Assembly (NCBI GenBank): GCA_002748055.1
Contig: PDRI01000095.1
Span: 3,081 to 67,080, forward strand
Direction: 5' to 3'
DNA from: Bacteroidota bacterium
GTDB taxonomy: Bacteria; Bacteroidota; Bacteroidia; Bacteroidales; GCA-2748055
DNA length: 64,000 nucleotides
Notes under the pieces: model-generated
The model's database searches: none
Told to the model about the DNA's origin: nothing
What the model saw: only the letters and a program-made list of their open reading frames with translations
Shown here: in pieces, positions 1 through 43,428 of the stretch
Layout of the letters: each line of letters begins with the position of its first letter
Position numbering within the stretch: the first letter of the stretch is position 1
Made by a program: the position numbers and the translations under genes

Positions 1-3000
1 ACCGTCTTTCCCGCTCTGTCGGCCCAGGTTTACATTCACCAGCTTCCTGGCAGGATTCGGATACAATGCCAATGAAGCAAGTGGCGAACCAAAGATTCCG
101 TCAGGTCCTTTCTTTTTGTAGGCTACATTGGCCTGAAGAATCCGTTTCGAATTTCTGTCCTGGATAAAAGCAGCGACCCCCAGATCATCGACATCCTCAA
201 CATAGCTCTTATAGTCCCAGGTATTTGTTCTCACATCACTTTGTCCGAAAGACCAGCTGCTGCCAATCAGTTTCCCGGAAGGAGTTGGCAACATATCCAG
301 TACCACGTTCCTGAACTCCGTATCGCCATTCTCGCCGGTATAGGCCGTCACTTCACGCTCAAATACAACAACATACAGCTGAAGATTGTCCACATAGCTG
401 GCCACCCGGCAAGTGGTTGTAGTCGTGGCCTCAAGGCCGGAATCCTCCCAGTTTACACTGAGATCGAGATCAAATTCGGCGGGGTAGAGCGTTAAGCGAA
501 GCCCCTGTTCAAGTGCCCGGGTTGCTTTAACTCCTGCAAAATCGAAGCGATACTCAGGCTCAAATCCCCCATCCATCACCGCATAGGGTACGGTGGGAAT
601 CCCGTAGTTAAAGGCCCTGGTCTCTGGGGCAATCTGGTTGTTCTGATTCATGGGATCGTTCCCGGGATAGTCCATGTGGTATTGCAGATCAATCACATCG
701 TTATGATTCTCTTCAGCAAAAGCATCTACCAGCTCATCGGCATTCCTGGCGCTTAAATCTGCCGAATTCGTAAAATACTCCAGCACAGCCTTTCTGGTCC
801 GACGCTTGAAACTCACATTATCAAAAGCAAAGCCCTGGTTGCCTATTCCCTCCCGACCCTGGGTGCCAAGAATAACCCTGAACATCACACCAGGCTCACC
901 TGCAAGCTCTTTCAAACCATGAACAGCTGTTTGCCAATCAGTATCAGGATTAAAGACTTCGAGCCCCCAGGCCTCCTCACTGCCGCCGGGTTTGTTCACG
1001 ACTTGTGGAATATTGTACCAGCCTATCCCACTCTCCAATTCTCCAACCGTCTGCCAGCCATCTTCCCGGTTTAATTGGTACTGTAACACAGCTCCATCCC
1101 GCTCGGGTGCAAAGCTCCGCATCAGATCCATGCTAATCATGGGCCTGTCTATTTCACTGAAATCGTAGCAGGGACTCTGCACCCAGGAATGCTCTTCATA
1201 CCCAATCTGGGTTTCGGGAAGCCTGGTAAAGAAGGCCCTGTCGCCACTCGCCCCTTCAAATCCATCGAAATCAGGGGTTTCCCAAACCCAGCTGGAGACC
1301 TGGTCCTCAGACTCCATGGTCCATCCTCCAGTGCTTAGATCAAAGGCTTCTGTAAAGCCCGATTCAGAAAGCTTAACGGTTTGGCGAAGGTTTACATCCT
1401 TGGTGATACTGTCCATACAGCCTTCTGCTGTTCCGGTTAGTAATTCAACCCGGTACAAACCTGCCTGAGCAAAATCAAATTTTACAGAACCTGAGTCGGC
1501 CGCAACACCAATCTGTTGCAGCAAGCTCCCATCCTCGGCCATAAAGCTCCAGATGGCGGTGTCTGCAGGAGACTGGCCGGAAAGGGTGCGATCCATGAAC
1601 ACGAGGCCATCATCCTCCGGAAGACAATCACTCGTCCATGTGAAGTCTGCACTCAGGTATGTACCTATATGTTTATCCATTCGCTTCTCCGATAAACAGC
1701 CACTGGAGTCAATCGCCGACAAGAAGATACTGTAGGTTCCCGCGCGCTCATAGTGGTGGTCGGGGCTCACTACCCTGCTGGTATCAAGTGCTCCGCTACC
1801 AGGATCCCCGAAGGTCCAGAGCCAGTGCTTAACCCCAAGTTTTCCTTTTGTCAGATTCCGAAACCCGACAATGCCTCCGGTATCGGCAATGCAGGTGGCA
1901 TTCAAGCTGAAATCAACGACCGGAGCAGAAAGAATATCCAATTCGGTAAGGGAAGATGCCGAACAGCCATTTCCGGTAGTCACCCGACACAAGATGCTGT
2001 GCACACCCGGACTCACCTCCAGCGGATCGAAATAGTAACCACTATCGCTACTGATTACACCCGGGCCTTCGAAAACAACATCTTCCACATCGGCCTGTAA
2101 GGCTAGTAACCCGCTGTTCTGACAATAGGATTCCTCCAGCCCCAGAATGATGGGTGGGGAAATGGTTTCGACCGTGAAAGTCCGGCTCAGATTGAGGGTA
2201 GCTCCCCGGTCAACATAGGTATAGTGAATCGTATACTCCCCTTCGCTCAGATTGGCAGGATTGATCGATGCGGTGTTGTTCCCGTTGTCGGTCAGACCTC
2301 CTACCGGATTGCCTGAAGCATTTGTAAGACTGAATTGGCCGACAATGCCCGTAACATTCGATGCTGATGCCAGAAAGACCCCCCCATTTGCACAGACCCT
2401 GTCGTCCGGAATATATAAACCACCATTGTTTCCCAGCACAAATACCAGTGCTGTATCGTAGCTTACGCAGCCGTTTTGATTCACATAGGAATAGACAATG
2501 TCGTGCGGCGAGTTAATGGTATCTGCAATAGCCGGATCAAAAGTCCCGCTACCACTAAAAACACCCGGCCCGCTGAAAATGCCACCCGGGATATTCGCTT
2601 CAAGAATCACCGGATCGGCATCATAAGGATAAGCCGATGCCAGGTTGGTAATCTCGACATCCGTTACGGGATTTACGTTCAAGGTCACCACTCCACTGCC
2701 GGTATTTTCGACACCATTCACATCCCTTACCAGCAGAATCTGATAGGTGGTCGTGTCATCAGGCATGACCGGAAGACTGTAATTACTGACCGACACCTCT
2801 GTGTAGCTCATGGTATCGGTACCATCGCTAAGCTCGATATACCAGGGCTCCCTTCCATTCAGAAAAATGGTCAACTCTGCAATGTCTCCCCTGCATACCT
2901 CTGAGGTTCCGGCGAGCAAAGCAATGGGAAGGTCTGTATAGATTTCAAGTTCGTTTAGCTCGAGATCTTCAGCAGCTTCACACTCATTCCCCGCAGGATC

Positions 3001-6000
3001 GATTAAAACAACGCTGATATCGAGCATTCCGGGTGCAACATCGACATCTCCTTCATCCACCTCGTAAGCCAGCTCATACAAGCCATCTCCAAATTCAGTG
3101 AATGTAACCCTGTCCGAACTAATGGGAACTCCATTAATGATGGTACCTGTAGCAACGCCATAGCCTTCATCATCGGCCGTAATCGTAACCTGAACGATAC
3201 CCCCGACGCCTACTTCCAGATCCGGTACCTCGAGACGATCGACCACGGGTGGATTGGCATCGATAATCACTGCACCCACATTCTGTAACAATGCATAAGG
3301 TTCTCCGATGTTCCCTGAAGGTTTTGCAAGCACTACCGAAGCTTCAAGCTCACCTGGCATCACATCCGTCTCACCCTCCTCGACCGTGTACAGCAGGCGG
3401 TAATGTCCACCCCCAAGTTCAACAAACTGAATATTAGCACTATCTGCACTAATCCCATTCACCTGTGATTCCTCCAGTAAGCTATAACTTTCGCCGTCGG
3501 CCTGAATCAATATTTCCACAACATCACCAATCTTATATATACCGGCTTGTACGCTCATGGTTGTAATTTCGGGGTTGGCAGCATCAATGGGGTCGCTATC
3601 CTGAGTGATGAGTTCGTTGTAGGCAATCCCGTTTACCGTTCCGTCGGAAAGCACGAGTTGGGCAACCGGAATGTCTTCCTCGGGAAGGAAGGAGTCTCCC
3701 CCTTCAACAACCTCGAAATTAGCCAGGTAAGTAGTCTCGTCAACACGCTGTAAGTTGTAAAGCGAATAGCCGCCCAACGTACCCGATACCAGACTATAGC
3801 TGCTTCCTCCATCATGGAAAACACGGATGGTGGCCGAGATAATGTCCCCGATTTTCATCGCTGCATTCGGAATGCTCACATTGGTGACAGTGGGCAAACG
3901 ATGACTGACCACCACATCGAAACTGCAGACACTTTCATTACCGGATAAATCCGTAGCTGTATAGCTTACTTCGGTCGTTCCCAGGTTGAATTCACAGCTG
4001 CCCAGATAGTTGATCCCTGTGCCTGGAGAGGATCCGATGGTAGCTCCGTCTAATTCCCAAACCAGGCTCAGCAGATCGCAATTGTCCTCAACAACGGGGT
4101 CCTCAACAAGAAGCAGCGAACTGTTTTCGTTCCTTTCGATGGTATCATGAACGTCTTCGGGACAGCTGGTGAACACCGGAGCTTCATCATCTTCTACTGT
4201 GATTGTCACAAAATTCGATGCGATCTCACCACATTCCACAGTGGCCATTCTCAGATAGAAGGTAGTCTCCGGGAGGCCTTCCGGAGGATCGTAGGAAAGG
4301 CCTGTTGCCCCTGCAATATCACTGAAAACACCACCAGCGGGACGCGATTTCCATTGATAGCTCCAATTACCGGAGCCTCCACTGGCTGCAGTCAGTGAAT
4401 TAATCTCTTCGGGATCACCCAGGGGACAGATCTCCTGGTCGCTTCCGATGGTTCCTCCATCCAGGACTTCGTTTACAACAACCGTTTCAACGGCTGAATA
4501 AGCGGAAGTTCCTGCCGAATTGTAGGCCAGAACCCGGTAGTAGTAGGTTGTCAGATTCTCTGTATTCAGATCTGTCCATTCCTCGCTATCTGCGGAGAGA
4601 TCCGCTACAACAGTGTAGGCTGCCACTCCCTGTTCCCTCCGCTGAACAATAAACCCGGCTTCGTTATCACTGTTATCGGTCCAGATCAGATCGACAGAAC
4701 AGACATTGTTCGCACTACCCTGTAAATCGCTTGGAGCTTCGGGTGGTGCAAGCTCGGTCATCGCATTTCCGGTAGCCGGGGCCGATGCACCTGCCAGGTT
4801 CTCGGCATACACCCTGTAGTAATAGCGCTTGTTGTCGTCCAATCCAGTGTCTTCAAAGGAAGTAACATTCTCGCCAACACTTCCGACTTCTGTATAACTG
4901 CCAAAAACCGAATTAGCCCTGTAAATGGAAAACTCATCCTCGTTGAAGGAATTGTCGTTCCAGGAAAGAACCATCGACGACGAGGTAATCTCACTAAAGT
5001 CCAGTCCGTCCGGAGCCACTGGAAGGGTAGGCATCGTTGTAGCCGATGCACTGGCATAGCTGTCCGAACTTCCTCCGGAATTAAATGCATAGACCCTGTA
5101 ATTGTAGCTGGTCTCTTCCAGAAGCGATGTTGAGACATAGCTAGTTACATTGGCTGCAACCTTCCCGTCTTTGACAAAGAGGCCTGATTCAGCAGTCGAG
5201 CGGTAAATCTCAAAGCCTTCTTCATCGTTTGAATTGTCTGTCCAGAACAATTCAACAGAGGATGCAGTAATCGATCCGGTGGATAGATTTGAAGGGCTGC
5301 TGGGGGGAAGTGGAAGGGTGCGCACTGAAGCCTGGCTAAAGTCTGAACTTCCTCCTGCATTCACAGCATAAACCCTGTAATAATAGCGCCGATAGGGTGT
5401 GAGGCCCGTATCAGTAAAACGCGTCACATCGGCCCCGACAGATCCTACAACCTGATACAAAAAGCTTGAATAGCGTGAGCGCTCAATCCGGAAGCCGGTT
5501 TCATTGTCAGAATTGTCCTCCCAGACAACATCCAGGCTGGTGCTGCCGATATTCTCAAAATCAACCAAAGAGGGCTTAGCAGGCGGATCGGGCAGGGTCG
5601 TCTCACTTCCGTGAGCATAGCTACTGGATTGTTCAAAGCCCTTATAAGCGAAAACCCTGAAGTAGTATTGGGTATTGCTGACCAGACCGGAAGCCAGATA
5701 GGTGGTCACATTTGCTCCGACACTCCCGATTAAAAGCCAGGAGCCGAAGATGCTTGTTCGGGCATAGATACGAAAACCTGTCTCATCCGTTGAATGATCG
5801 TCCCAGATGAGCTCAATCGAATTATTTGTTACTTCCCCAAAACGCAGATTACTTGGTCCGATTGGTGGTGCAGCCAGGGTAGTGACATTGCCGGAAGCCG
5901 GACCAGAACTACCTCCTGTGTTCACAGCATAGACCCTGTAGAAGTAGTCTGTCAATGGCGTTATTTCATTGGTATCCAGATAGCTTACTTCATCGGCCGG

Positions 6001-7455
6001 GGTGGTACCCACCTGATTGTAATCCCCCTCTTCAGAAAGTGCCCTGTGAATCGTGAACCAATCTTCATTGTCGGCATTGTCGGTCCAACTCATCGATACC
6101 GAAGCGCTGGAGACCCCTGAAAAGGCGAGATCTGTGGGTGCGGCTGGTGCCGACGGAAGGGTTGTTTCATTGCCCTCGAGAACCGAAGATGAACCGGCTG
6201 CATTCAGTGCTACAATGCGAAAATAATACGTGGTTTCTTCCGAAAGGCCCGTTACCGTAAAAGTCGTAACATCCGTTCCCACACTACCCTGGGAGCTAAA
6301 GCCCCCGGACGAACCGGTCGACATAAATATCTCAAAAGAATCCTCGTTATCGGAGTTGTCGGTCCAGTTTAAGGTAATCGATGAAGAAGTAACAGCACTA
6401 AAGACAAGATCGCCCGGGGCAGCAGGAATCTCGGGGTCTGTTGTGACTTCCAGCACTTCCGTATAGGCCGAAGGCCCGACATTATTCACAGCCCGGACAC
6501 GGAAATAATACGTGGTCGCTGCACTAAGCGAAGTAAGCGTATAAGATGTAAGATCCGGTTCCGTGGTATGGACCGGGCTGAAATCCCCGTCATTGCCTGT
6601 CAGTGACTGTTCAATTTCAAAGCCATTCTCATCCGATGAATTGTCGTTCCAATTCAACTCAATGCTGCTACTGGTGACCGCAGCACTCGCAAGCATATCC
6701 GGAGCATCGGGAAGGCCGTTCAGGTAGTCGGCCACGGCAAGGGCCCATGCCTTACCCATTTTGTCGTATCCCGATTGCAATAAGTGGATGCCATCAGCTT
6801 CAAAGTCTCCGGGATAGTCAATCCCTGCACCAAGTTCCATATCTACCAGAACAAGCCCTGGATCACCCCTGTCAGCTACCATCAGCGCAATATTGTCGTT
6901 CAGATCGCTAATGTCTGAACTGAGTGGATAGGTGTTTACGATACGAGCCACAAAGACCTGCACATGTTTTCCATTAGCCACTTCCCACGCGTCAATCTCA
7001 TCCAGAATCCGGGCGATGGTATCGGCCGAACTTCCCTCTCCATCCAGTACATCGTTCGTGCCAATATGCAACAGAACAATGTCGGGTGAATAGACATCCA
7101 GATAAGGCTGCCCTCCGGTGGAATAAGCTTCTTCGATGTCCTCCCCGGTCTGCAACAGGTTCAGCACATTGGAATCGGAAGTATTCGGAATACCCGCATG
7201 CTCGGTATCGGTCATCAAAAGAGAACCCGAGGACTTATGTCCGATCATATCGCTGCTGTACCCCTCCGCTGTGAGGCTGTCTTTTAAAACAAGACGATAG
7301 GAGACCCTCTCCTCCATCGGAAGAGAACCCCGGCCTTCGGTAAGCGAATTGCCCAGTGGAAGAATTTTTACAGATTGCCCCGCAGCAATCGCTGAAGACA
7401 GCAGGAGCAGAAACATTATCGGCGTGATCAGGGCCTGGATGTATGACTTTTTCAT
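1..7455 (-). CDS. Partial (3'-truncated by the window edge) giant secreted protein of at least 2485 aa. Order: signal peptide, SGNH/GDSL hydrolase, 8 FN3-like repeats, HYR-like domain, three ~95-aa Ig-like modules, PKD-like domain, and the start of a T9SS C-terminal sorting domain.
   Basis: Not in the supplied ORF track. Manual reverse-strand translation from the ATG at 7455..7453 stays in the frame that ends exactly at base 1 (7455 = 3 x 2485), and I saw no stop. The N-terminus MKKSYIQALITPIMFLLLLSSAIAAGQ looks like a signal peptide. SGNH blocks: LPLGNSLTEG, LLHIGTNDV, DGIHLLQSGYDKMG. There are eight ~93-aa units with W(T/N)DNS.(N/D)E.GF.I.R and YY(Y/F)RV.A.N..G.S. HYR-like: APVFTSCPEDV...VEDNCD...TATDLSGNESVCSFDVVV. 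PKD-like: WLWTFGDPGSG...HHYERAGTYSIFL. The tail LYPNPARKLVNVNL sits at bases ~1-60. Confidence 0.85.
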   Translation of the reverse strand, partial: MKKSYIQALITPIMFLLLLSSAIAAGQSVKILPLGNSLTEGRGSLPMEERVSYRLVLKDSLTAEGYSSDMIGHKSSGSLLMTDTEHAGIPNTSDSNVLNLLQTGEDIEEAYSTGGQPYLDVYSPDIVLLHIGTNDVLDGEGSSADTIARILDEIDAWEVANGKHVQVFVARIVNTYPLSSDISDLNDNIALMVADRGDPGLVLVDMELGAGIDYPGDFEADGIHLLQSGYDKMGKAWALAVADYLNGLPDAPDMLASAAVTSSSIELNWNDNSSDENGFEIEQSLTGNDGDFSPVHTTEPDLTSYTLTSLSAATTYYFRVRAVNNVGPSAYTEVLEVTTDPEIPAAPGDLVFSAVTSSSITLNWTDNSDNEDSFEIFMSTGSSGGFSSQGSVGTDVTTFTVTGLSEETTYYFRIVALNAAGSSSVLEGNETTLPSAPAAPTDLAFSGVSSASVSMSWTDNADNEDWFTIHRALSEEGDYNQVGTTPADEVSYLDTNEITPLTDYFYRVYAVNTGGSSGPASGNVTTLAAPPIGPSNLRFGEVTNNSIELIWDDHSTDETGFRIYARTSIFGSWLLIGSVGANVTTYLASGLVSNTQYYFRVFAYKGFEQSSSYAHGSETTLPDPPAKPSLVDFENIGSTSLDVVWEDNSDNETGFRIERSRYSSFLYQVVGSVGADVTRFTDTGLTPYRRYYYRVYAVNAGGSSDFSQASVRTLPLPPSSPSNLSTGSITASSVELFWTDNSNDEEGFEIYRSTAESGLFVKDGKVAANVTSYVSTSLLEETSYNYRVYAFNSGGSSDSYASASATTMPTLPVAPDGLDFSEITSSSMVLSWNDNSFNEDEFSIYRANSVFGSYTEVGSVGENVTSFEDTGLDDNKRYYYRVYAENLAGASAPATGNAMTELAPPEAPSDLQGSANNVCSVDLIWTDNSDNEAGFIVQRREQGVAAYTVVADLSADSEEWTDLNTENLTTYYYRVLAYNSAGTSAYSAVETVVVNEVLDGGTIGSDQEICPLGDPEEINSLTAASGGSGNWSYQWKSRPAGGVFSDIAGATGLSYDPPEGLPETTFYLRMATVECGEIASNFVTITVEDDEAPVFTSCPEDVHDTIERNENSSLLLVEDPVVEDNCDLLSLVWELDGATIGSSPGTGINYLGSCEFNLGTTEVSYTATDLSGNESVCSFDVVVSHRLPTVTNVSIPNAAMKIGDIISATIRVFHDGGSSYSLVSGTLGGYSLYNLQRVDETTYLANFEVVEGGDSFLPEEDIPVAQLVLSDGTVNGIAYNELITQDSDPIDAANPEITTMSVQAGIYKIGDVVEILIQADGESYSLLEESQVNGISADSANIQFVELGGGHYRLLYTVEEGETDVMPGELEASVVLAKPSGNIGEPYALLQNVGAVIIDANPPVVDRLEVPDLEVGVGGIVQVTITADDEGYGVATGTIINGVPISSDRVTFTEFGDGLYELAYEVDEGDVDVAPGMLDISVVLIDPAGNECEAAEDLELNELEIYTDLPIALLAGTSEVCRGDIAELTIFLNGREPWYIELSDGTDTMSYTEVSVSNYSLPVMPDDTTTYQILLVRDVNGVENTGSGVVTLNVNPVTDVEITNLASAYPYDADPVILEANIPGGIFSGPGVFSGSGTFDPAIADTINSPHDIVYSYVNQNGCVSYDTALVFVLGNNGGLYIPDDRVCANGGVFLASASNVTGIVGQFSLTNASGNPVGGLTDNGNNTASINPANLSEGEYTIHYTYVDRGATLNLSRTFTVETISPPIILGLEESYCQNSGLLALQADVEDVVFEGPGVISSDSGYYFDPLEVSPGVHSILCRVTTGNGCSASSLTELDILSAPVVDFSLNATCIADTGGIVGFRNLTKGKLGVKHWLWTFGDPGSGALDTSRVVSPDHHYERAGTYSIFLSAIDSSGCLSEKRMDKHIGTYLSADFTWTSDCLPEDDGLVFMDRTLSGQSPADTAIWSFMAEDGSLLQQIGVAADSGSVKFDFAQAGLYRVELLTGTAEGCMDSITKDVNLRQTVKLSESGFTEAFDLSTGGWTMESEDQVSSWVWETPDFDGFEGASGDRAFFTRLPETQIGYEEHSWVQSPCYDFSEIDRPMISMDLMRSFAPERDGAVLQYQLNREDGWQTVGELESGIGWYNIPQVVNKPGGSEEAWGLEVFNPDTDWQTAVHGLKELAGEPGVMFRVILGTQGREGIGNQGFAFDNVSFKRRTRKAVLEYFTNSADLSARNADELVDAFAEENHNDVIDLQYHMDYPGNDPMNQNNQIAPETRAFNYGIPTVPYAVMDGGFEPEYRFDFAGVKATRALEQGLRLTLYPAEFDLDLSVNWEDSGLEATTTTTCRVASYVDNLQLYVVVFEREVTAYTGENGDTEFRNVVLDMLPTPSGKLIGSSWSFGQSDVRTNTWDYKSYVEDVDDLGVAAFIQDRNSKRILQANVAYKKKGPDGIFGSPLASLALYPNPARKLVNVNLGRQSGKDG
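4474..6711 (-). repeat. In-frame tandem array of 8 fibronectin type III-like domains (~93 aa each) inside the giant minus-strand CDS.
   Basis: The signature recurs eight times in the manual translation: S(S/A)(I/V).L.W.DNS.NE.GF.I.R ... T.Y.(D/V)..L...T.YYYRV.A.N..G.S. 2238 bp / 8 = ~280 bp per unit. Confidence 0.8.
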
Positions 7456-7859
7456 GTGCTTGATTTTGCTTTCGAAATGCCTCCGGATTGGGTCCCTGGA
7501 GTGCACCTATACAAATCTAAAAGATTTTTGCTGCTGTCTGAGTCCTATTTGATTAACCCGATCAATTCTGCCATGAATTACGATGAAAAGCCCGGCAGAA
7601 AGAAATCTGTCCATCTGACAATTTATAAAATACTGTTATTCTGCGTATTATACAATCTCTCCCAAGCTTTATCCTGCACGAGTCAAAAACAGAAAAATCA
7701 ACAGCGATCAGAATTCATCAACGAAATTCTTCCATTTATACCGAAATTTTAACAGTTCGTCCAAATCAAGCTGTATCCGGAGAAATGCTCCCCGTGACGG
7801 AACAGCTATAACTGCACTTCGATGGCGACTTTTTCCATTGATTAGGACGGTGAGAATAC

Positions 7860-7867
7860 TATCTTTG
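7860..7867 (+). promoter_or_regulatory. Candidate Bacteroidota -7 promoter box (TAnnTTTG).
   Basis: TATCTTTG lies 34 bp upstream of the ATG at 7901, inside a 445-bp divergent intergenic region. Confidence 0.35.
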
Positions 7868-7900
7868 TACTCCCTTTGACGGAGTCAGGGGATCGTTGTT

Positions 7901-9897: not shown

Positions 9898-12800
9898 ATG
9901 AAAAAAGGAATACTTACAACACTCTTCCTCTCCTTCTTCCTGTTCTTGTTTTTTGCCCCCGAAGCAGAGGCCCAAACAGTGGTCTTCGATCAGGAGATTT
10001 ACTGGGAGCACCCCATTCCAAAGCCCTATGGAGGTTACGGCTTTTACTGGTGGCACCGAACCGATGGTGGATACTACAACATCAATTACGGGAGCATGCC
10101 TTCGGACAACTGGAGCGCATACTATAACGGGGAATGGACGATTCGCTTCGAGATTCTCGACATGCCTTCCTCCGAGCCCTTTACCATCCAGTTTGGCATC
10201 TGGCAGGATCAAGATAAGGGAGGCGCGCATCCTGAAACGGTATCCGGACAACAGCAAATTGTCCCCGGTTCGGTCTATAGCGCAAGCCTGGGAAGCCCGA
10301 GCAGTTGGTGGAACAAAGAACCCGGAGACCCCGTCGACTTTAGCCGCCCTGGAGATTTCTACCGAATTGGTCTCGTACTCTGGAACCCGAATCCTTTGTG
10401 CCTGTTAAAAGGCCCTGAATGGGGAGGAGGCGGATGCCCGGAGAATGCATACAAGTATTTCCCCATGCGGGCCCGTGTCACGGTTACAGCCACCGGGGGA
10501 GAAGCTCCTCCCGTTGATCCGCCAAGTTATGGTATCGATTACCAGAATGAGCGAAGCGATGCCCCGGTTTCCTCCGATGACGAGTATGCCTACAATGCGG
10601 ACTTCTCGGATGCCGTAAGCGGCAGTGGCGCCTATCTTGGCCTCACACCCGGTCAAAACGTCTATTTCCGAAAGAAGGCCGATCATTCAAAGACCCAGAC
10701 CCTTGAGGTTCCCTCCAGGGCTGCTGCCCCTTCTTTCTCCATTAACTTTCAGAGTGAAGCAACGAATGAGGCTGTAAGCAATGCTCACGAATTTGCCTCA
10801 GCCAACGATTTTAGTGATGCACAGGATGGAAACGGGAACCCTGTGTCCATCGTTCCGGGACAGTCATTGTTCATTCGGACAAAAGCCACATCCTCGGCCT
10901 TTGCCTCCGAAACCCTGGCACTGACCCCCCCGGCACGACCGGCAGCTCCTGACTTTGGCATTGATTTTACGAACGAAGTGACAACGCTGGCCATTCCAGA
11001 GACCATGGAATATGCCAGCAGTGCCGATATGTCGGAAGCAGTCCAGGGCGTGGGCACTCCCCTCAGCCTAAGCCCCGGTAATGAGCTGTTTTTCCGCTAC
11101 CGGGCAACGGCAAGCGATTTTGCATCGGAACAGCTGCATTTAGAGGTTCCCGAAAGACCGGCTACACCGACATACAGTATTGATTATGCGAATGAGACAA
11201 CTGCTGAAGCCGTTTCCAGCAGCGACGACTACAGCCCGGCATCGGACATGAGTGGTGCCTCGGCAGGCAATAATGAGGTGCTCACGCTTACCCCGGGTTC
11301 CAACCTTTACTTCAGAACCAGGGCTACTTCAAACAGCTTCCAATCGGACATCCAGACCCTCGTGGTCCCCGGTCGTGCGGCAACACCCAGCTTCAGCATC
11401 AATTTCATTGCTGAAACCACAAACGAAGCGGCAGAAGATTACATGGCCTATTCGACCCAGGCCGATATGAGCAATCCGGAATTTGGCGGGGGTGACCCGA
11501 TCGCTTTGAACCCCGGAACCGACCTCTACATCCGGCAGGAATCCTCAGCTGCAGGCTTCCAGTCGGACATCCAGCATCTGCAGGTTCCGGAAAGGGAAGC
11601 CGCACCAGCGTTTGGTTTTGAATACCTTACAGAACAAACCAGTACGGCAGTCGGCAGCGATCATGAATATGCTGACAATTCAGATTTCCAGAACGCTACA
11701 AGTGGCAATGGTGAGCCTGCCCCGGTTATCCCCGGGCAGATCCTTTACATCAGGCTGAAAGCTACTGCTGTGGCCTTTGCATCGGCAAGCCAGCAGCTCG
11801 ACATACCTGCACGCCCCGAAGCCCCCGAAATCGGCATCGACTTTGTTGCCGAAGAAACAGACGATGTGATCAGCAGCTCCATGGAATACGCGACACTCCC
11901 CGATATGAGCGATGCTGTCAGTGGGGATGGAACAGCCATTGCCGTCGCACCAAATGCAGACATCTACATCCGGTACATCGCCACCCCCAGCAGCTTCAGC
12001 TCCGAAATTCAGCACCTGGATGCCCCCGGCCGGAGTCCAACACCGGCTTACAGCATCGATTTTGATCATGAAACGACCTTTCAGACCATTGACGAGCTGG
12101 ATGAGTACTCAAATGATCCGGGCATGGCAGGGGCCACTGCCGGTTCGGGGACTGTTCTGGCACTCACTCCGGGTAGCACGGTGTATTTCAGGACCACGGC
12201 CGGAACACACGGTTTCCTGTCGGAAATTCAAACCCTTGAGATTCCCGCACGCCCGGAAACCCCGGCCTTCAGCATAGACTACCTGAACGAATCAACCCTG
12301 GAAAGCCTGAACAACACCTTTGAATATGCGAGTCGGGCCGACATGGCTGATGCCGTTAGTGGCACAGGGAGTCCGGCTCCACTTAATCCCGGAAACCACA
12401 GCTATTTCAGGCAAAAAGCTTCGGCCTCGGAATTCCGCTCCGGAATTCAGGATCTGGATGTGCCCGGACGCCCCCAGGCACCGGAATTTGATTTTGACTA
12501 TCTGACCGAGGAAACCACCACTTCTGTTGGTCCCGGCTACGAATATGCTGCCAGCAGTGATTTCAGCGATGCCATCACCGGAAATGACAATCCGGCACCC
12601 GTTGTTCCGGGTCAGGCTTTTTACATCAGGGCAAAATCGAGTACCACTTCATTTGCTTCTGAAGCCCAGGTTCTGGCGATCCCCTCTCGACCAGATGCTC
12701 CTGCTGTAGGGATAAATTACCTGACGGAGAAAACGGATGTGCCCATTCCCGAAACCATGGCCTTCTCTGCGGATGCAGATATGACAGAAGCCGAAACCGG

Positions 12801-14772
12801 GACCGGCATGCCTCTGGATGTTCCACCGGGCACACAATTGTATTTCCGGTACCATGCGAGCAGCAGTAGTTTTGCATCCCATATTCAACATCTGGATGCA
12901 CCTGAGCGTGGGACACCGGCCTTCAACATCGACTTTGAGGAGGAACAAACGGTAGAAATTCTGACAGCCAATGATGAATATGCCACAAACATTGAAATGA
13001 GTGGTGCCAGAACCGGAACCGGAACCAGAATCGCGATCAGTCCGGGCACCAGTCTGTACTTTCGTTCAAAAGCCAGTGCTACGGCATATATGACGCTTGT
13101 CCAAACGCTTGTCGTACCCGAACGGCCCGAATTGCCGAACTTTGAGATCGACTACCAAAACGAAAGAACGAGCTCCATCGTCAGTTCCGGCTTCGAGTAC
13201 TCCAGCACTTCCGATATGCAGAATGCCTTAAACGGCACAGGATCCCATGTCGATCTGACACCCGGCAAGAACATGTATTTCAGGGTAAGAAGCGGTGCTT
13301 CTTCCTTCCACTCGGAGATTCAGACCCTGATTGTTCCTGGCAGGTCCGCGGCTCCGAACTTTGGCATTGATTTTATGGAAGAAGAAACGACTCCAGCACT
13401 TGGGAGTGAACATGAATATGCTTCCAATATTGATTTCAATGGTGCCATCAGCGGAAATGGAAATCCTGCCCCCCTTATCCCGGGCGAATCCATGTACATC
13501 AGGTTCAGGGCGCTTTCAGACGCATTTGCATCTGAGGCTCAACACCTGGTGGTTCCCGCAAGGCCCGACAGGCCATCCATCGGAATTGACTATGTGAGAC
13601 AGCGAACCGATGTAAGCATCCCTGCGTCTATTGAGTATTCGCTTCAGAGCAATATGCATGATGCAACAGCCGGCAGTGATGATTACCTCCAGGTACCTCC
13701 GCAAACCAATCTGTACTTCAGGGTAATCGGAACCACCACGACATTCAAGTCTGATGTTCAACACCTTTCCTCCCCTGCCAGGCCAGCGAAACCAGCTTTC
13801 GAAATCAATTATGCCCTGGAACAGACTAAAACAGCGGCAGCCGAAAACGTGGAGTACTCAACACAGAGCGACATGAGCAATTCCCTCATATCGGATGGCG
13901 ATTACATCCCCCTCACTCCCGGACAGGACTTCTATTTCAGATTTTTAGCTACAACCAGCTCTTACGATTCTGATATTCAACATCTTTCTGTTCCATCCAG
14001 AAGGCCTGCACCGGGATTTGGTTTTAGCTATGAGTCGGAACTGATCCTGCCGGCCATAAGCAGCAACTATGAGTATGCCGATAACCCGGAAATGACCAAT
14101 GCCCTAAGTGGCACTAACAACAGGCTAAGTGTGATTCCGGGACAGCCCCTCTATATCAGACAGAAGGCCGGTAACAATTCCTTTGCCTCTGAAACGCAAA
14201 TGATGGACATCCCTTCCCGACCGGTGCTCAGCAGCAGCGACACGGATACAACCGGCAGCAATCCACTGGTCCTGACCCTCACCTATCCGTCAAATATGAG
14301 TGATTTTGTCCAGGACAGCCTAAAGCTTGAAAATGCCAGCTTGCTTTCGGTCACAAAGATCTCCGAAGGAGACGATGCCAATGTCTATGAGCTTTCCTTA
14401 AACTGCACAGAAGGCGCGGTCAGGGCAGAACTGGCAGCCAACGCAATCCCGCAAGGCAGTTTCAGATCGGAACCCTTCAGCATCTATTACAAAGCAGGCT
14501 ATATCAATGGACTGCAGGAGTCCGGATCACTTTCGGTTAAACTCTATCCAAACCCGAACGCCGGAAGGCTCTTCCTGGAGTCCAATCAGGAGGCTGGCAG
14601 GCTTCAATACATTTGGATTTACAATGTTACAGGCAGCCTTGTACATACAGGCAGGCTTGATGGACAGTATCGTGCCGAGCTCAATCTCGAAGGATTGGAA
14701 AAAGGCATCTACTTCCTCAGAGTGGATACACAAAAGACAAGAATCCACTCCAAATTTCAACTTTATAAATAG
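9898..14772 (+). CDS. Giant secreted repeat protein (1624 aa). Order: signal peptide, unknown ~180-aa N-terminal domain, 17 tandem ~73-aa units, Ig-like module, T9SS C-terminal sorting domain.
   Basis: Signal peptide MKKGILTTLFLSFFLFLFFAPEAEAQ. Repeats have the consensus AP.F.IDY..E.T.......EYA...DMS.A..G.G....L.PG...YFR.KA....FAS..Q.L.VP.RP. The C-terminus KLYPNPNAGRLFLES...GIYFLRVDTQK..SKFQLYK matches the Por_Secre_tail pattern. Confidence 0.9.
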   Translation: MKKGILTTLFLSFFLFLFFAPEAEAQTVVFDQEIYWEHPIPKPYGGYGFYWWHRTDGGYYNINYGSMPSDNWSAYYNGEWTIRFEILDMPSSEPFTIQFGIWQDQDKGGAHPETVSGQQQIVPGSVYSASLGSPSSWWNKEPGDPVDFSRPGDFYRIGLVLWNPNPLCLLKGPEWGGGGCPENAYKYFPMRARVTVTATGGEAPPVDPPSYGIDYQNERSDAPVSSDDEYAYNADFSDAVSGSGAYLGLTPGQNVYFRKKADHSKTQTLEVPSRAAAPSFSINFQSEATNEAVSNAHEFASANDFSDAQDGNGNPVSIVPGQSLFIRTKATSSAFASETLALTPPARPAAPDFGIDFTNEVTTLAIPETMEYASSADMSEAVQGVGTPLSLSPGNELFFRYRATASDFASEQLHLEVPERPATPTYSIDYANETTAEAVSSSDDYSPASDMSGASAGNNEVLTLTPGSNLYFRTRATSNSFQSDIQTLVVPGRAATPSFSINFIAETTNEAAEDYMAYSTQADMSNPEFGGGDPIALNPGTDLYIRQESSAAGFQSDIQHLQVPEREAAPAFGFEYLTEQTSTAVGSDHEYADNSDFQNATSGNGEPAPVIPGQILYIRLKATAVAFASASQQLDIPARPEAPEIGIDFVAEETDDVISSSMEYATLPDMSDAVSGDGTAIAVAPNADIYIRYIATPSSFSSEIQHLDAPGRSPTPAYSIDFDHETTFQTIDELDEYSNDPGMAGATAGSGTVLALTPGSTVYFRTTAGTHGFLSEIQTLEIPARPETPAFSIDYLNESTLESLNNTFEYASRADMADAVSGTGSPAPLNPGNHSYFRQKASASEFRSGIQDLDVPGRPQAPEFDFDYLTEETTTSVGPGYEYAASSDFSDAITGNDNPAPVVPGQAFYIRAKSSTTSFASEAQVLAIPSRPDAPAVGINYLTEKTDVPIPETMAFSADADMTEAETGTGMPLDVPPGTQLYFRYHASSSSFASHIQHLDAPERGTPAFNIDFEEEQTVEILTANDEYATNIEMSGARTGTGTRIAISPGTSLYFRSKASATAYMTLVQTLVVPERPELPNFEIDYQNERTSSIVSSGFEYSSTSDMQNALNGTGSHVDLTPGKNMYFRVRSGASSFHSEIQTLIVPGRSAAPNFGIDFMEEETTPALGSEHEYASNIDFNGAISGNGNPAPLIPGESMYIRFRALSDAFASEAQHLVVPARPDRPSIGIDYVRQRTDVSIPASIEYSLQSNMHDATAGSDDYLQVPPQTNLYFRVIGTTTTFKSDVQHLSSPARPAKPAFEINYALEQTKTAAAENVEYSTQSDMSNSLISDGDYIPLTPGQDFYFRFLATTSSYDSDIQHLSVPSRRPAPGFGFSYESELILPAISSNYEYADNPEMTNALSGTNNRLSVIPGQPLYIRQKAGNNSFASETQMMDIPSRPVLSSSDTDTTGSNPLVLTLTYPSNMSDFVQDSLKLENASLLSVTKISEGDDANVYELSLNCTEGAVRAELAANAIPQGSFRSEPFSIYYKAGYINGLQESGSLSVKLYPNPNAGRLFLESNQEAGRLQYIWIYNVTGSLVHTGRLDGQYRAELNLEGLEKGIYFLRVDTQKTRIHSKFQLYK
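10519..14223 (+). repeat. Coding tandem array of 17 units of ~69-73 aa (207-219 bp), organised as a 4-unit super-repeat.
   Basis: The conserved aromatic anchor codon (F/Y of P.F.IDY) of the type-A units lies at 10735, 11611, 12487 and 13360, with spacings of 876, 876 and 873 bp. The last type-A unit is at 14017, a spacing of 657 bp (3 units). Unit 1 (anchor 10528) is a distinct variant ending DHSKTQTLEVP. Confidence 0.85.
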
Positions 14773-38659: not shown

Positions 38660-39742
38660 TCAGTAATTAATCGTTAGGCTTTGAAAAAGATCCAGGGTAT
38701 TGGCCAGCGCAATGTCCAGACCACTTTCCCTCCAATGGGTATCTGTACCATAATAGAGTAGCTCATCGGATTCCATAAAGTCCTCATAAAGCCGAATGAC
38801 GGGCATTCCCCTTTCTTCAAGGCCGGCATACAACCTGGGTAGGAAATCATTATAAGGATCATTATTGATCAGATCGTGATAGATCGTATACTTCGAGGGA
38901 ATGGCCATAAAGACCATTTTCAACTTATAGGTCTCGTATAATTTCTCCGACAAATCCACCATGTTATCACAATAAGTATTGATCTCATCATCGCTGTACT
39001 GGTAATAAAAACTGCCGGGATCGTCTCCGAGCTGGTCGTGGTAAAAAACCCACGGGGTTTCCTCCTCCAGGGTATAGACCGGTGTCATGTCGGTAATATA
39101 GCCAAAGACATCGAATTTCATCGTGGCAGCCATTGAATACAGGTCGCAGGTGAGTACATTTCTCGATAGCAGTGTACTGTACAACGCATCCGTATTGTCC
39201 TGAAATATCACATCCCTGGTATTGGCCAGAGCTTTCCGGACCCCACTCCTCTCGTCTGCCAAATGCCCAAGCTGATGCGGCGTTGTAAATCGGGTAGGAA
39301 TGTAGCGTTCTGCCGATTCAAACAAGAGGATTTTCTCCTCCTCATTGCGGTATTCATTCTCTGCCAGAAGCGTTAAAGGCCTGTCCATCCTGGCATAAAA
39401 GACCCGCTTGTTTAGGCTGTCCGAGAGCCTTTCCGGGAAGGTAGTCATCCGGGTAAAATCGAAGAAACTATCACCAAAAAGCAATACATCGGCCTCCTGC
39501 AGGCTCGGATGCCGGTCGGTAAAACGATACTTCACCGAATACCCGGGAAGGTTCTCTTCCCTGAAATGCTTAATATAATTAAAGTAATACAACTCACCAT
39601 ACTTTGTATTCTCCCAGTATTCGGGAATAATCTTTTCTTTGAGAACGGCATTAAACATGGAGGGTACCCTCACGGCAATAAAAGCATAGAGGCAAATCAC
39701 ACCCGCAACGTAAACCAATATTTTTAATAAGCGCTCACTCAT
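38660..39742 (-). CDS. AlgJ/AlgX-like (DHHW-type) SGNH-fold O-acetyltransferase partner protein.
   Basis: 360 aa. It has an N-terminal membrane anchor, [10 protein letters not shown] and YYGTDTHW (DxHW motif), and lies directly downstream of the MBOAT gene. Confidence 0.65.
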
Positions 39743-39753
39743 GACTCCTTAGC

Positions 39754-41196
39754 TTAAAACTGAAAATACAGAAAATCGGATCCCTGCCATACACCGAGTA
39801 TCGCAATTGCAATGATCAAAACGGATAAAACCAGCCACTTCACCGGCCTGGATAGATTGGCCTTTAAGCGGGCATACAAACCCGTATACTCTTCCAGGGA
39901 TTCAACCAGCAAGAGAATGCCAATCCCCAGAAAGGCAAGCAGAAAATCGACCCGGAAATGGAAAAGATTTAGCTGTCCGCTTCCAGTAAAACGAAAGGTA
40001 TCCCCAATAATCTGAAAGGCATCATAGGTATTGTTTGCCCGGAAAAAGATCCAGGAAAAATAGACCAGCACAAAAGTAATCAGGATCTGACTGGTCTTAT
40101 ACAGCCCGTTAAATTTCGTAAGGCCGATCCCCTTATTGAACCGATCTCTGAACTTCTTGGTCATGATCGCAAAAACCAGGTAAAACCCATGCAGGGCACC
40201 CCATATCACAAAGGTCCATTCGGCACCGTGCCATAAACCACTTACAAGGAAGGTAATAAAGAGGTTATAGTACCAACGCCATTTCACAACCCTGTTCCCG
40301 CCAAGCGAAATATAGACATAGTCCTGGAACCAGGTCGATAGTGAGATATGCCAGCGTTTCCAGAATTCCCTGATACTCATGGCAAAATAGGGCCTCCTGA
40401 AGTTTGTCATCAGCCGGTAACCCAGAATAAGTGCAGCTCCGATGGCAATATCGGAATACCCCGAAAAGTCGCAGTAAATCTGGAAGGAAAAGAAAAAGGT
40501 AGCGATCATGTTCTGGAAGCCACCATAATCGCCCGGATTATTATAAACGATGTTCACATACTCGGCAAGACGGTCGGCGATGACCACCTTCTTAAAGAAG
40601 CCCCAGACCATCAGAAAAACGCCCTCCTTTACCCGCTCATATTCGAACTTATAGTCCTGACGGAATTGCGGAAGGAGATTTACAGAACGCTCAATTGGTC
40701 CTGCCACAAGCTGTGGGAAAAAGGACACAAAAAGCGCAAAACGTCCAAAATGGTATTCCGGTTCCTGCTTGCGACGATAAATATCAATCGTATAACTCAG
40801 GGTCTGGAAGGTATAAAAGGAGATTCCTACCGGAAGCAGAAAATGATAGGCCGGCACTTCCCTGAAAATATTGAACTGGTCAAAGAAGAAATTCACGGTA
40901 TCGCCAAAAAAATTGAAGTACTTAAAAAAGAACAACAAGCCAAGATTCGTCGTCAGACTTGCCATAAGCAGGAGCTTTCTTGGCGTTTTCTTTTCAAGCT
41001 TGTGCATCAGGATGCCGGCAAAGTAATCTACCACCGTAGAGAACATGATCAGGACGATGTACTTGTAGTTCCAGCACATGTAAAAATAATAGCTGGCAAT
41101 CAACAGCAGAATCCACCTGTACCTGGGATTCATTGCAAAATAAGCTGCTACAACAATGGGGAAGAAAATGAGAAATTCAAGCGAATTAAAGAGCAT
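39754..41196 (-). CDS. MBOAT family O-acyltransferase (AlgI/DltB-like).
   Basis: 480 aa, polytopic. MLFNSLEFLIFFPIVV..., FWKRWHISLSTWFQDYVYISLGGNR, SGLWHGAEW (conserved His). Confidence 0.9.
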   Translation of the reverse strand: MLFNSLEFLIFFPIVVAAYFAMNPRYRWILLLIASYYFYMCWNYKYIVLIMFSTVVDYFAGILMHKLEKKTPRKLLLMASLTTNLGLLFFFKYFNFFGDTVNFFFDQFNIFREVPAYHFLLPVGISFYTFQTLSYTIDIYRRKQEPEYHFGRFALFVSFFPQLVAGPIERSVNLLPQFRQDYKFEYERVKEGVFLMVWGFFKKVVIADRLAEYVNIVYNNPGDYGGFQNMIATFFFSFQIYCDFSGYSDIAIGAALILGYRLMTNFRRPYFAMSIREFWKRWHISLSTWFQDYVYISLGGNRVVKWRWYYNLFITFLVSGLWHGAEWTFVIWGALHGFYLVFAIMTKKFRDRFNKGIGLTKFNGLYKTSQILITFVLVYFSWIFFRANNTYDAFQIIGDTFRFTGSGQLNLFHFRVDFLLAFLGIGILLLVESLEEYTGLYARLKANLSRPVKWLVLSVLIIAIAILGVWQGSDFLYFQF

Positions 41197-41223: not shown

Positions 41224-43428
41224 TTAATTTCCAGATAGTTGCAGAATTAGTCTGCCGGTTTTCAATATTTTGGTGCATCCCTTTTCGGATAGCCTGTAAA
41301 AGTACATTCCATTTCTGAGGCTGCCGGCCCTTAGATCAATCGACGAGGAAGCCCCGGAGAGTTCCCTTTGCAGGATCACTCGTCCATTCATGTCGATCAA
41401 TTCAAAACTGACAGAACGACCCGGATCTTGGGGCAACTCCACACGTATCAAATCACGCACCGGATTGGGGTAGACCCTCAATGCTTCTGCTTCAAACCGA
41501 TTGCCTGCCGATGTAGATTCAAACACGCGAAGGTTGAAGGACTGGAAGCTGGTGTCAATTCCATCACTTACCCCAAGGGTTACCAGTGTTTGTCCGAGAT
41601 CTGCTTTGGTCGGGGTGCCAATCAGCACCTGTGAAGCGGGGTTGAAATCGAGCCAGTCCGGAATGCTGTAATCGAAATAGACCAGCGGATCGTTTTCATT
41701 GTCGCTGGCTGTTATTCCGTAGCTATAGGTATTCCCTACCTCTGCCGAGTCCTTGGGCACCGATCCGATTTCCGGCGGATAGTTGTAATAAACAACAGCA
41801 AGTTGGAAGGCCTGGGTGGTAGTAGCAATGCCGTCGGAGACCGTAAGCACAATGCTCTCGACCCCGGCCTGATTTCTGGCAGGTGTTCCGCTGACCAGAC
41901 CGGTGGAGGGATGAATCGTCATCCAGCCAGGCTTCTGGTTGGCCCCGTATTGCATCACATCCTCCGGGTCCTGGTCGGAAACAACCAACTGGTAACTATA
42001 GGTGTGCCCCGTCTTAACACTCAGGGGGGGAGATGAGAGGATGATGGGTGGATAGTTCACAACATCCACGCTGATTACCAGGTTATAGACATTCGATTCC
42101 CGCCCATTGGCAATAGCCTTTACCGGAACCTGCAGTTCACCATTAAAACTCAGATCGGGTATAATAGTCTGCCCCTGAACAGTATAGTTCGATCCGTTTC
42201 CGACTATCAGGACCATTCCGGCAGGAGCCTTCTCGTTCTCGACCAGTATGAGGTCAGCTGGTGTAATCGTATGTGTCGCCCCTTCTGCAATCGAAATGTT
42301 TTGCTGACCAATAATCTCGGGAATCCAGTTTACCGTAAAATCCACCAGGCAGGATGAAGACTTCCGGAGAATCTCCAGAACCCTTCCATCATCCGTGGCT
42401 ACAAACTCAATGGTCTCCATTCCGCTCCATTGCTCATTGCGCGGAACAACCGTAGCCACATGGCTCACCGGATCGATGCTCACTGAAAAATGCTCGGGGG
42501 AAGCAGGGGATACTGACCAATCAATGTTGGCAGCAGGTGTTTCCGGATCGGATACATAGGCATCAAGGGAAATGGTCGAAAAAGCCTCTCCCCGATCCGC
42601 ATCCTGGTTCGCAATCTGACTAAGCGTCGGCGTGCTGTTATAATTGTCAATCTCCTCAAACCATAAATCGGCCATCTTGTCGTAGCCGTTCTGGTTGGGA
42701 TGCAGCTCATCCGTCATATCATTAGTATAATCAATGCCTGCCGCACACTCCATATCGACCAGCTCAAGATGGTCGCCCATTGCGATTCTGCTCTGCACCA
42801 GCGATGTCAGATTGTTGTTAAAAGCAACCACACCGGACCGGGTATTGCAAGCATAGCCCTTTTCACTAATAACCTTGGAAACAAAGACCAGCACCGGATT
42901 TCCACTCGACTGCTCATATGTATCTACGGCATCCAGAATAGCTTCCACATGATTCACCCCGGTCTGCCCCTGCTGAATATCATTCGTACCAATATGCAAA
43001 AGAATGATATCGGCCTGGTTCGATGCCGTATTCAGATAGGGGCCCGGGCTGACTACTCCGGTGTGCGAAGAAGTTCCCGTTTCCATCACAGCGGCGAGCT
43101 CCCAGCTGTGAATTCCGGCAAAACCTCCATGATAGGGATCTGACATTACACTTTGTCCACTGCGTTCGCTCCCCACGAAATCGGGATTGTACCCGGCATC
43201 TGCCAACAGGTTATAAAGGTGGTGGCGATAGCCTATTGCACTGGCATCTGCCAGGGGCTGACAGGATCCTATCGCGCCATTCGTGCACCAAACCCCCTTG
43301 GTAATTGAATTTCCAAGTGGCAGAACCTTTAACTGGGCCCGGCTATCAACTGTTGTAAAAGCCAGGAAAAAGACCCAAAGTACAAGGAAAAAAGAAAAGG
43401 CATTTATCGAACGGGGCGATTTCTTCAT
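41224..43428 (-). CDS. Secreted SGNH/GDSL hydrolase fused to Ig-like and dystroglycan-type cadherin-like repeats and a T9SS C-terminal sorting domain.
   Basis: 734 aa with a signal peptide. SGNH blocks: VLPLGNSITKG, LLHIGTNDI, DELHPNQNGYDKMA. Cadherin-like repeats: PGWMTIHPSTGLVSGTPARNQAGVESIVLTVSDG and IPDWLDFNPASQVLIGTPTKADLG. Tail: RVYPNPVRDLIRVEL...GMYFYRL. Confidence 0.85.
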   Translation of the reverse strand: MKKSPRSINAFSFFLVLWVFFLAFTTVDSRAQLKVLPLGNSITKGVWCTNGAIGSCQPLADASAIGYRHHLYNLLADAGYNPDFVGSERSGQSVMSDPYHGGFAGIHSWELAAVMETGTSSHTGVVSPGPYLNTASNQADIILLHIGTNDIQQGQTGVNHVEAILDAVDTYEQSSGNPVLVFVSKVISEKGYACNTRSGVVAFNNNLTSLVQSRIAMGDHLELVDMECAAGIDYTNDMTDELHPNQNGYDKMADLWFEEIDNYNSTPTLSQIANQDADRGEAFSTISLDAYVSDPETPAANIDWSVSPASPEHFSVSIDPVSHVATVVPRNEQWSGMETIEFVATDDGRVLEILRKSSSCLVDFTVNWIPEIIGQQNISIAEGATHTITPADLILVENEKAPAGMVLIVGNGSNYTVQGQTIIPDLSFNGELQVPVKAIANGRESNVYNLVISVDVVNYPPIILSSPPLSVKTGHTYSYQLVVSDQDPEDVMQYGANQKPGWMTIHPSTGLVSGTPARNQAGVESIVLTVSDGIATTTQAFQLAVVYYNYPPEIGSVPKDSAEVGNTYSYGITASDNENDPLVYFDYSIPDWLDFNPASQVLIGTPTKADLGQTLVTLGVSDGIDTSFQSFNLRVFESTSAGNRFEAEALRVYPNPVRDLIRVELPQDPGRSVSFELIDMNGRVILQRELSGASSSIDLRAGSLRNGMYFYRLSEKGCTKILKTGRLILQLSGN

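Follow-up and report, generated by a model that had tools for sequence, protein, structure and literature searches.

One gene at the left edge of the window

We analysed a stretch of 64,000 nucleotides from an uncultured Bacteroidota bacterium of the order Bacteroidales (GenBank assembly GCA_002748055.1, contig PDRI01000095.1, positions 3,081 to 67,080 of the forward strand), referred to here as the window. Positions 1-7455 encode, on the minus strand, one real gene with a 2541-aa product. The protein carries an SGNH/GDSL esterase head, a long series of β-sandwich domains and a C-terminal type IX secretion system (T9SS) sorting domain, and it is probably a T9SS-exported O-acetylesterase on a stalk of variable length. 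As a first-pass annotation of the window had proposed, translation of the minus strand from the ATG at 7455 to base 1 gives a single uninterrupted frame of 2485 codons with zero stops. A stop-free run of this length would arise by chance with a probability of ~1e-54 given the base composition of the region, and an in-frame stop lies 18 codons 5′ of the ATG. Over these positions the open reading frame (ORF) track that accompanied the window lists only short ORFs of 60-142 aa, leaving 12% of the window (7455/64000) apparently empty, again as claimed. The program that made the track is described as excluding ORFs that run off either end, so the absence of the gene is an edge effect of the lister and not a biological oddity.

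Leftward extension of the sequence recovered the C terminus. An exact 40-mer from the left edge of the window had no match in the GTDB genome collection and was matched in the metagenome contig PDWJ01000334.1, in which the gene runs on for 56 codons beyond base 1 to a TAA stop. The same product is deposited in GenBank as "hypothetical protein CSA96_06525" (P0108 in our set, from an uncultured Bacteroidetes genome), which has 2541 aa and is 100% identical over the 2485 codons of the window. The gene is thus absent from the supplied ORF track and already present in the databases. An independent Logan assembly of run SRR6011893 yielded a 2541-aa gene called with identical start and stop. The window and PDWJ01000334.1 differ by 1 mismatch in their 123-nt overlap, C vs A at window base 84 (contig position 40), which exchanges Pro for Thr at aa 2458, and the translated tail of PDWJ01000334.1 departs from CSA96_06525 at aa 2524. 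The window therefore corresponds to the CSA96_06525 record, and PDWJ01000334.1 is a near-identical variant assembly.

These comparisons effectively refute the reading of the long frame as an assembly chimera or a decaying pseudogene. The frame has no stop in 2541 codons, is identical in an independent assembly and is collinear with ~20 full-length orthologues. Decay or misassembly might be suspected from one related genome, in which a 1.06-Mb contig of a metagenome-assembled genome (MAG) shows the orthologue broken into three successive gene calls (1984, 110 and 648 aa). A helicase nearby is itself called as two genes (231 and 231 aa), so the split most likely reflects assembly frameshifts.

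Domain architecture

We divided the product, and the region upstream of it, into the following features:

7456..7900, no strand: divergent intergenic region of 445 bp shared with a GT2 glycosyltransferase gene, with two TAnnTTTG motifs
7381..7455, minus strand: start codon and predicted Sec-type signal peptide, aa 1-25 (MKK, hydrophobic core, AIA-A)
6712..7371, minus strand: SGNH/GDSL esterase head, CE3-like, aa 29-248 (PF00657, PF13472; Ser37, Asn134, Asp221, His224)
4465..6711, minus strand: eight tandem FN3 units of 93-95 aa each, aa 249-997 (PF00041 and unit alignment)
4192..4464, minus strand: Ig unit resembling RemA and the SprB repeat, aa 998-1088 (sequence match to RemA chain 8GL6_D)
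3898..4191, minus strand: HYR domain, aa 1089-1186 (PF02494)
2932..3897, minus strand: three Ig-like modules of ~107 aa each, aa 1187-1508 (AlphaFold2 and Foldseek, no Pfam model)
1927..2931, minus strand: four probable β-rich, Cys-containing units of ~80-90 aa, aa 1509-1843 (conservation pattern)
1384..1926, minus strand: two PKD units, aa 1844-2024 (PF18911, PF00801)
790..1368, minus strand: MAM-like jelly-roll, aa 2030-2222 (AlphaFold2 and Foldseek)
106..789, minus strand: HBP35/Omp28-like pair of a thioredoxin-fold lacking CxxC (aa 2223-2325) and an Ig-like sandwich (aa 2326-2450) (Foldseek)
1..72, minus strand: T9SS type A sorting domain, aa 2462-2541, of which the first 24 residues lie in the window (PF18962 and TIGR04183 on the recovered tail)

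All elements named in the first-pass annotation were recovered, and profile hidden Markov models (HMMs) for SGNH, fn3, HYR, PKD and the sorting domain all scored above their cutoffs. Four points were added or corrected: the number of PKD units, the content of aa 1509-1843 and of aa 2030-2450, and the database status of the gene.

A CE3-like SGNH head with conserved catalytic residues

The N-terminal domain matches PF00657 with 40 bits (cutoff 23.6) and PF13472 with 37.1 bits (cutoff 32.9), which bears out the SGNH assignment. It carries the Block I motif GNS(37)LT, the Block III motif GTN(134)D and the Block V motif D(221)GIH(224). Ser, Asp and His occur without exception in 18 orthologues and the paralogous protein encoded at 41224..43428 of the window, and Asn is present in 17/19 sequences. 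The paralogy between these two SGNH modules, already recognized in the first pass, is evident from 35% identity (E 9e-35). Among solved structures the sole sequence relative is 2VPT (CtCes3-1), with E 2e-15 over aa 25-248. When the SGNH head was used by itself as the query of a homology search, just 8 fragments, all from the same family, and no named relative came up. As judged from these alignments, the head is CE3-like and closest to CtCes3-1, with its predicted catalytic residues intact. Because the triad is invariant across orthologues that are only 45-53% identical, we argue that an enzymatic function has been under selection. A literature search for T9SS cargos that combine SGNH or carbohydrate-esterase heads with FN3 domains found nothing relevant, and neither did one for the accessions of the sample.

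A probable β-sandwich stalk with a variable FN3 array

The head is followed by FN3 units that match PF00041 with 226 bits (cutoff 25, E 4e-68) in 7 Pfam stretches. Alignment of the units to one another, at 26-51% pairwise identity, gives the eight that had been claimed; the eighth shares the W...YYYRV...N..G.S pattern of the others. Orthologues carry 2, 5, 7, 8, 9, 10 or 12 FN3 units. Close relatives keep the first and last units collinear and have gained or lost units in between, for which reason we regard the array as a spacer of variable length.

Beyond the FN3 array, the match to RemA chain 8GL6_D falls within aa 998-1060, at aa 1009-1060 (E 8e-6), and the SprB-repeat match is weak and below cutoff (E 0.025). 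The HYR-like module of the first pass is confirmed by PF02494 at aa 1089-1183 (39.9 bits, cutoff 21.7). The three ~107-aa modules that follow have no match in Pfam or NCBIfam. They had been placed at ~2940-3890 as Ig-like, and an AlphaFold2 model of aa 1187-1508, with a predicted local distance difference test (pLDDT) score of 92.3, supports that assignment by showing three tandem Ig-like sandwiches. Foldseek matches this model to titin Ig tandems (E 3.9e-9), FdeC and filamin. More distant copies of the ~107-aa module (28-40% identity) are also seen in Proteobacteria and other phyla, for example in Azospirillum, Methylobacterium, an Alteromonadaceae bacterium and Geobacter.

The next ~335 aa (aa 1509-1843) gave only sub-threshold matches among Pfam and NCBIfam models (Cadherin_5, E 2.6e-4; tandem-95, E 0.002) and no relatives among PDB sequences. 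They are probably four further β-rich units of an Ig- or cadherin-like kind, with boundaries set from the conservation pattern. Two stretches that follow match PF18911 (PKD_4; 49 bits, cutoff 27), and PF00801 scores 28.3 bits (cutoff 23.5). The PKD identity given in the first pass is thus upheld and its count of one module is corrected to two units.

A recurrent C-terminal cassette

The ~420 residues between the PKD units and the sorting domain (aa 2030-2450) were not described in the first-pass annotation. AlphaFold2 models them with pLDDT 90.8 and a predicted template-modelling score of 0.86. The first part has no Pfam match and is a predicted jelly-roll, for which Foldseek returns the MAM domain of neuropilin (5L73, template-modelling (TM) score 0.62), LAST-MAM 8A28 and meprins, together with the gingipain K1 adhesin domain 4ITC, carbohydrate-binding modules and the ligand-binding domains of ephrin receptors. 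We use "MAM-like jelly-roll" as a label for the predicted fold only.

The second part (aa 2223-2450) has HBP35 (5Y1A) as its top Foldseek match, with E 1.9e-11 and a TM score of 0.59 normalised to the target. A sequence profile of the cassette searched against the PDB did not find HBP35. PF11551 has no match on this protein, and some relatives carry a precomputed PF11551 match; NF045500 (Omp28_seleno) reaches 16.9 bits vs a cutoff of 200 (E 0.003). Because profile and family HMMs fail in this way, we describe the region as HBP35/Omp28-like in fold and not as a family member. Its thioredoxin-fold and Ig parts are 30% identical (E 9e-23) to an Omp28-like protein (P0103), whose CxxC motif (CWPC) aligns with D-L-S-A in the giant protein, and redox activity is therefore not expected. 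The motif is kept in 1/36 close family rows (P0024, S-C-A-I-C), and several others keep the second Cys alone; across the family, the CxxC motif seems to have been lost to differing degrees.

Searching exhaustively with the cassette gave at least 650 clusters (50% identity) at E <= 1e-30. Among the 129 best representatives of the 650 clusters, the cassette ends 70-115 aa before the C terminus in 128, the PNP signature of the sorting domain is present in 123 and CxxC is present in none. Cassette proteins with N termini resembling signal peptides are ~1100-3100 aa long. We also considered that the cassette might normally be a free-standing protein of 500-700 aa that had been fused to the giant gene; this was ruled out, as nearly all matches start in the middle of a domain and have no signal peptide. 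Fragments, or frameshift-split calls like those in the 1.06-Mb contig, account for many of the 300-700-aa database proteins matched by the cassette.

Signals for export

The N terminus shows the signal peptide predicted in the first pass, with MKK, a hydrophobic core and an AIA-A site. The hydrophobic region (aa 8-25, 18 residues) has a mean Kyte-Doolittle hydropathy of 2.25, the same pattern is kept in orthologues, and the independent gene call uses the same start. At the other end, where only the start of a T9SS sorting domain had been seen, the recovered tail contains the full type A domain, matching PF18962 with 48 bits (cutoff 27) and TIGR04183 with 36.7 bits (cutoff 23). At least 4 other proteins of the window carry Por_Secre_tail, and their presence is indirect support for a T9SS in the host. 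PorU cuts the sorting domain off T9SS cargos, which afterwards are either released or attached by way of anionic lipopolysaccharide (A-LPS) (PMC11285876). From its two terminal signals, we infer that the CSA96_06525 product is exported as a T9SS type A cargo.

A family with a constant C-terminal part and exchangeable distal parts

The same architecture, as read with HMMs built from the giant protein's own repeats, is found in around 20 orthologues with 45-53% identity and lengths of 1984-2882 aa; all are from uncultured Bacteroidota. Constant among them are the length of the signal peptide and SGNH domain, a 191-aa linker after the last FN3 unit, the presence of exactly three Ig modules and a C-terminal part of ~1033 aa. 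A scan of GTDB genomes placed close relatives in Bacteroidales/Bacteroidota MAGs only, frequently as 2-3 copies in one genome. The C-terminal part is preserved in paralogues, but their start differs and consists of FN3 units only in one of them and of 1-9 divergent InlB B-repeats in others.

The exchange of SGNH and FN3 domains for other distal parts raises the possibility that the protein serves mainly in adhesion or as a surface fibril, like SprB, RemA or FdeC, with the C-terminal part and stalk as its functional core and the SGNH head as an accessory payload of one subfamily. The resemblance of aa 998-1060 to the gliding adhesin RemA points the same way, as do the FdeC-like Ig modules, the similarity of the MAM-like domain to gingipain adhesin domains and carbohydrate-binding modules, and the presence of 2-3 copies in several genomes. 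The invariance of the catalytic triad within the SGNH subfamily, at the orthologue divergence given above, speaks for a selected enzymatic function, and the sorting domain is of type A whereas that of SprB is of type B. We consider a mainly adhesive role the less probable account, and regard it as plausible and not exclusive of an exported esterase on a stalk.

Genomic context

Two GT2 genes diverge from the giant gene, and after them come the genes of two T9SS-tailed proteins, in agreement with the divergence from a GT2/repeat-protein unit described in the first pass. By its predicted gene content, the window from 7901 to 50961 is mostly one exopolysaccharide or capsule locus. Its glycosyltransferases comprise WecG and several of the GT2 and GT4 families, accompanied by an initiating sugar transferase (Bac_transf). 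Further genes encode a UDP-GlcNAc 2-epimerase, a C-methyltransferase, an NAD-dependent epimerase and a PL14-FN3-LamG protein, and those for export encode a Wza-like Poly_export protein and a Wzc-like GNVR+AAA_31 protein. Members with T9SS tails include the SGNH-He_PIG-sorting-domain paralogue at 41224-43428 and a LamG-He_PIG-sorting-domain protein.

On the minus strand at 38660-41196, a gene for an AlgI-like MBOAT protein (101 bits) adjoins one for an AlgX-like protein, and the two lie directly beside the paralogue at 41224-43428. The match of the AlgX-like product (38660-39742) to the AlgX SGNH acetyltransferase model is borderline, with 27 bits vs a cutoff of 26.5. The pair suggests that the polysaccharide of the locus is O-acetylated.

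It could also be taken to mean that the SGNH head of the giant protein is itself an O-acetyltransferase, like AlgX, PatB or the C-terminal domain of OatA, that acetylates the exopolysaccharide. By structure, SGNH-fold acetyltransferases come nearest to CE3 enzymes (PMC9487903), in keeping with such a role. The locus, for its part, has its own AlgX-like candidate at 38660-39742 for this activity, alongside the MBOAT protein. In the AlgI/J/X and PatA/B systems, the known SGNH acetyltransferases act at the membrane or in the periplasm, close to the MBOAT protein that supplies the acetyl groups. A T9SS cargo at the distal end of a long extracellular stalk would have no evident acetyl donor, and an acetyltransferase role is for that reason very improbable; removal of acetyl groups is the activity that we favour for the head.

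In 3/3 further loci with inspected gene tables, a GT2 gene, with or without WecG, lies <10 kb from the giant gene. A wider survey by tblastn covered 34 loci with 10-kb flanks, a span too short to assess the MBOAT and AlgX-like genes, and its outcome is considered below with the proposed mechanism.

The intergenic region contains TAnnTTTG at 7512-7519 (minus strand) and 7860-7867 (plus strand), 57 nt and 34 nt 5′ of the respective start codons and both correctly oriented. On weak evidence, the pair may be Bacteroidota -7 promoter elements. Two correctly placed copies compare with ~0.25 expected by chance in the divergent region; across the window the motif is not enriched (35 vs 35.7 expected), and the pair serves as a positional hint only.

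At 9898-14772 (plus strand) lies a gene for a 1624-aa protein with a T9SS tail, otherwise with no Pfam domain and with a sub-threshold match to OspG kinase. In three orthologous loci, a large T9SS protein encoded beside the giant gene carries LTD and CotH domains. Outside the polysaccharide locus, at 54397-56340 (plus strand), a 647-aa protein with a full-length match to DUF4914 (940 bits) is encoded between two genes for xylose-isomerase-like TIM barrels.

A proposed mechanism

We hypothesize, with better than even confidence, that the protein is a T9SS-exported O-acetylesterase borne on a stalk of variable length. Its Sec signal peptide would take it to the periplasm, and its C-terminal type A sorting domain would direct its passage through the T9SS. 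The sorting domain would then be removed, and the protein would either be released or have its new C terminus attached to the outer membrane as HBP35 is. If attached, it would hold the jelly-roll, the redox-dead thioredoxin-fold and the Ig domain next to the cell. The ~19 β-sandwich domains would form an extended stalk of ~65-75 nm if straight, a length estimated from typical domain sizes, in which the FN3 array would be the spacer of variable length. The CE3-like SGNH head, with its catalytic residues intact, would be located at the distal, N-terminal tip and would most likely take O-acetyl groups off a polysaccharide. The window favours as substrate the polysaccharide of the adjacent exopolysaccharide locus, with its MBOAT/AlgX-like pair for O-acetylation; alternatively, the substrate may be an acetylated environmental glycan such as xylan. 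The gene, its domains including the sorting domain, the conserved catalytic residues and the pattern across the family can be seen in the sequences, whereas export, anchoring, geometry and substrate are inferred.

Several observations weigh against this proposal. CE3 enzymes are marked by GXSXT in Block I and a DFVG...DXD calcium loop (PMC9487903), and that loop is only partly kept in the head, which has DMIG(x10)DTE in its place. Genes for T9SS machinery were not seen in the single contig, from an uncultured MAG, that was covered. Type A sorting domains are also found on released cargos, so the protein may not be tethered. As the paralogues keep the C-terminal part without the enzyme, the function that is conserved across the family may be something other than catalysis. 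Finally, in the tblastn survey the exopolysaccharide genes recur only sporadically near orthologues (GT2 in 4/34, WecG in 3/34 and PL14-LamG in 5/34 loci), and the steadily conserved neighbours are housekeeping-like, namely an RsmD-like methyltransferase, DUF3822, a 211-aa protein and a helicase (15/34 loci). Because of this sporadic recurrence, we treat the link to exopolysaccharide as no more than a sub-hypothesis.

A bolder extension, which we put forward tentatively and hold to be improbable as a whole, is that the cassette together with the sorting domain is a widespread, undescribed export or anchoring adaptor for varied distal payloads, and that the number of FN3 units (2-12) in the SGNH subfamily acts as a ruler for how far above the outer membrane an O-acetylesterase trims the cell's own O-acetylated exopolysaccharide. 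Were the cassette such a general adaptor, it would aid the prediction of surface-tethered T9SS cargos and might serve as a display scaffold.

The analysis turns an "empty" 12% of the window into one well-defined gene, and it allows the window to be read as an exopolysaccharide locus flanked by T9SS-exported proteins that may modify polysaccharides. It describes a conserved family in uncultured Bacteroidales with a fixed cell-proximal part and exchangeable distal parts, and a C-terminal cassette that recurs in hundreds of clusters of large T9SS cargos and has no dedicated family model. Current understanding of the T9SS and of SGNH esterases is not overturned; the main by-products are the fixed cassette shared across clusters of large T9SS cargos and an FN3 number that varies in a ruler-like way.

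Comparison with known systems

In kind the product is already familiar, since it belongs with the large multidomain T9SS cargos that bear a carbohydrate-esterase head, and it is uncharacterised in detail. SprB and RemA of Flavobacterium johnsoniae are likewise very large, repetitive β-sandwich proteins exported by the T9SS, and the likeness extends to the RemA match and the weak SprB-repeat match within the stalk. The systems differ in that SprB has a type B sorting domain and the present protein one of type A, and in that the RemA-type lectin domain was not found here. We know of no enzymatic head described for SprB or RemA.

For the head, the nearest counterpart is CtCes3-1 of Clostridium thermocellum (PDB 2VPT), a GDSL-2/CE3 acetyl-xylan esterase with which it shares GxSxT, GTND and DxxH (PMC9487903). 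CtCes3-1 is displayed through an accessory module, a dockerin (PMC9487903), and display on an accessory part is thus common to both. Here, in contrast, the head would be carried on a stalk of ~2300 aa with a T9SS signal and no dockerin, and its calcium loop reads DMIG...DTE.

For the opposite end, HBP35 of P. gingivalis (5Y1A) has the same order of thioredoxin-fold, Ig-like domain and T9SS sorting domain. As a T9SS cargo, it is fixed to the surface of the cell by A-LPS (PMC3120885). HBP35 is a stand-alone 35-kDa protein with CxxC, whereas the corresponding domains here form the C-terminal end of a 2541-aa protein, carry DLSA and show no similarity to it at the profile level.

At the level of the locus, PatA/PatB/Ape1 and AlgI/AlgJ/AlgX offer a functional analogy (see also PMC9487903): the locus likewise appears to pair an MBOAT protein and an SGNH-like acetyltransferase with separate SGNH esterases. 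It departs from both systems in that its esterases would be multidomain proteins exported by the T9SS.

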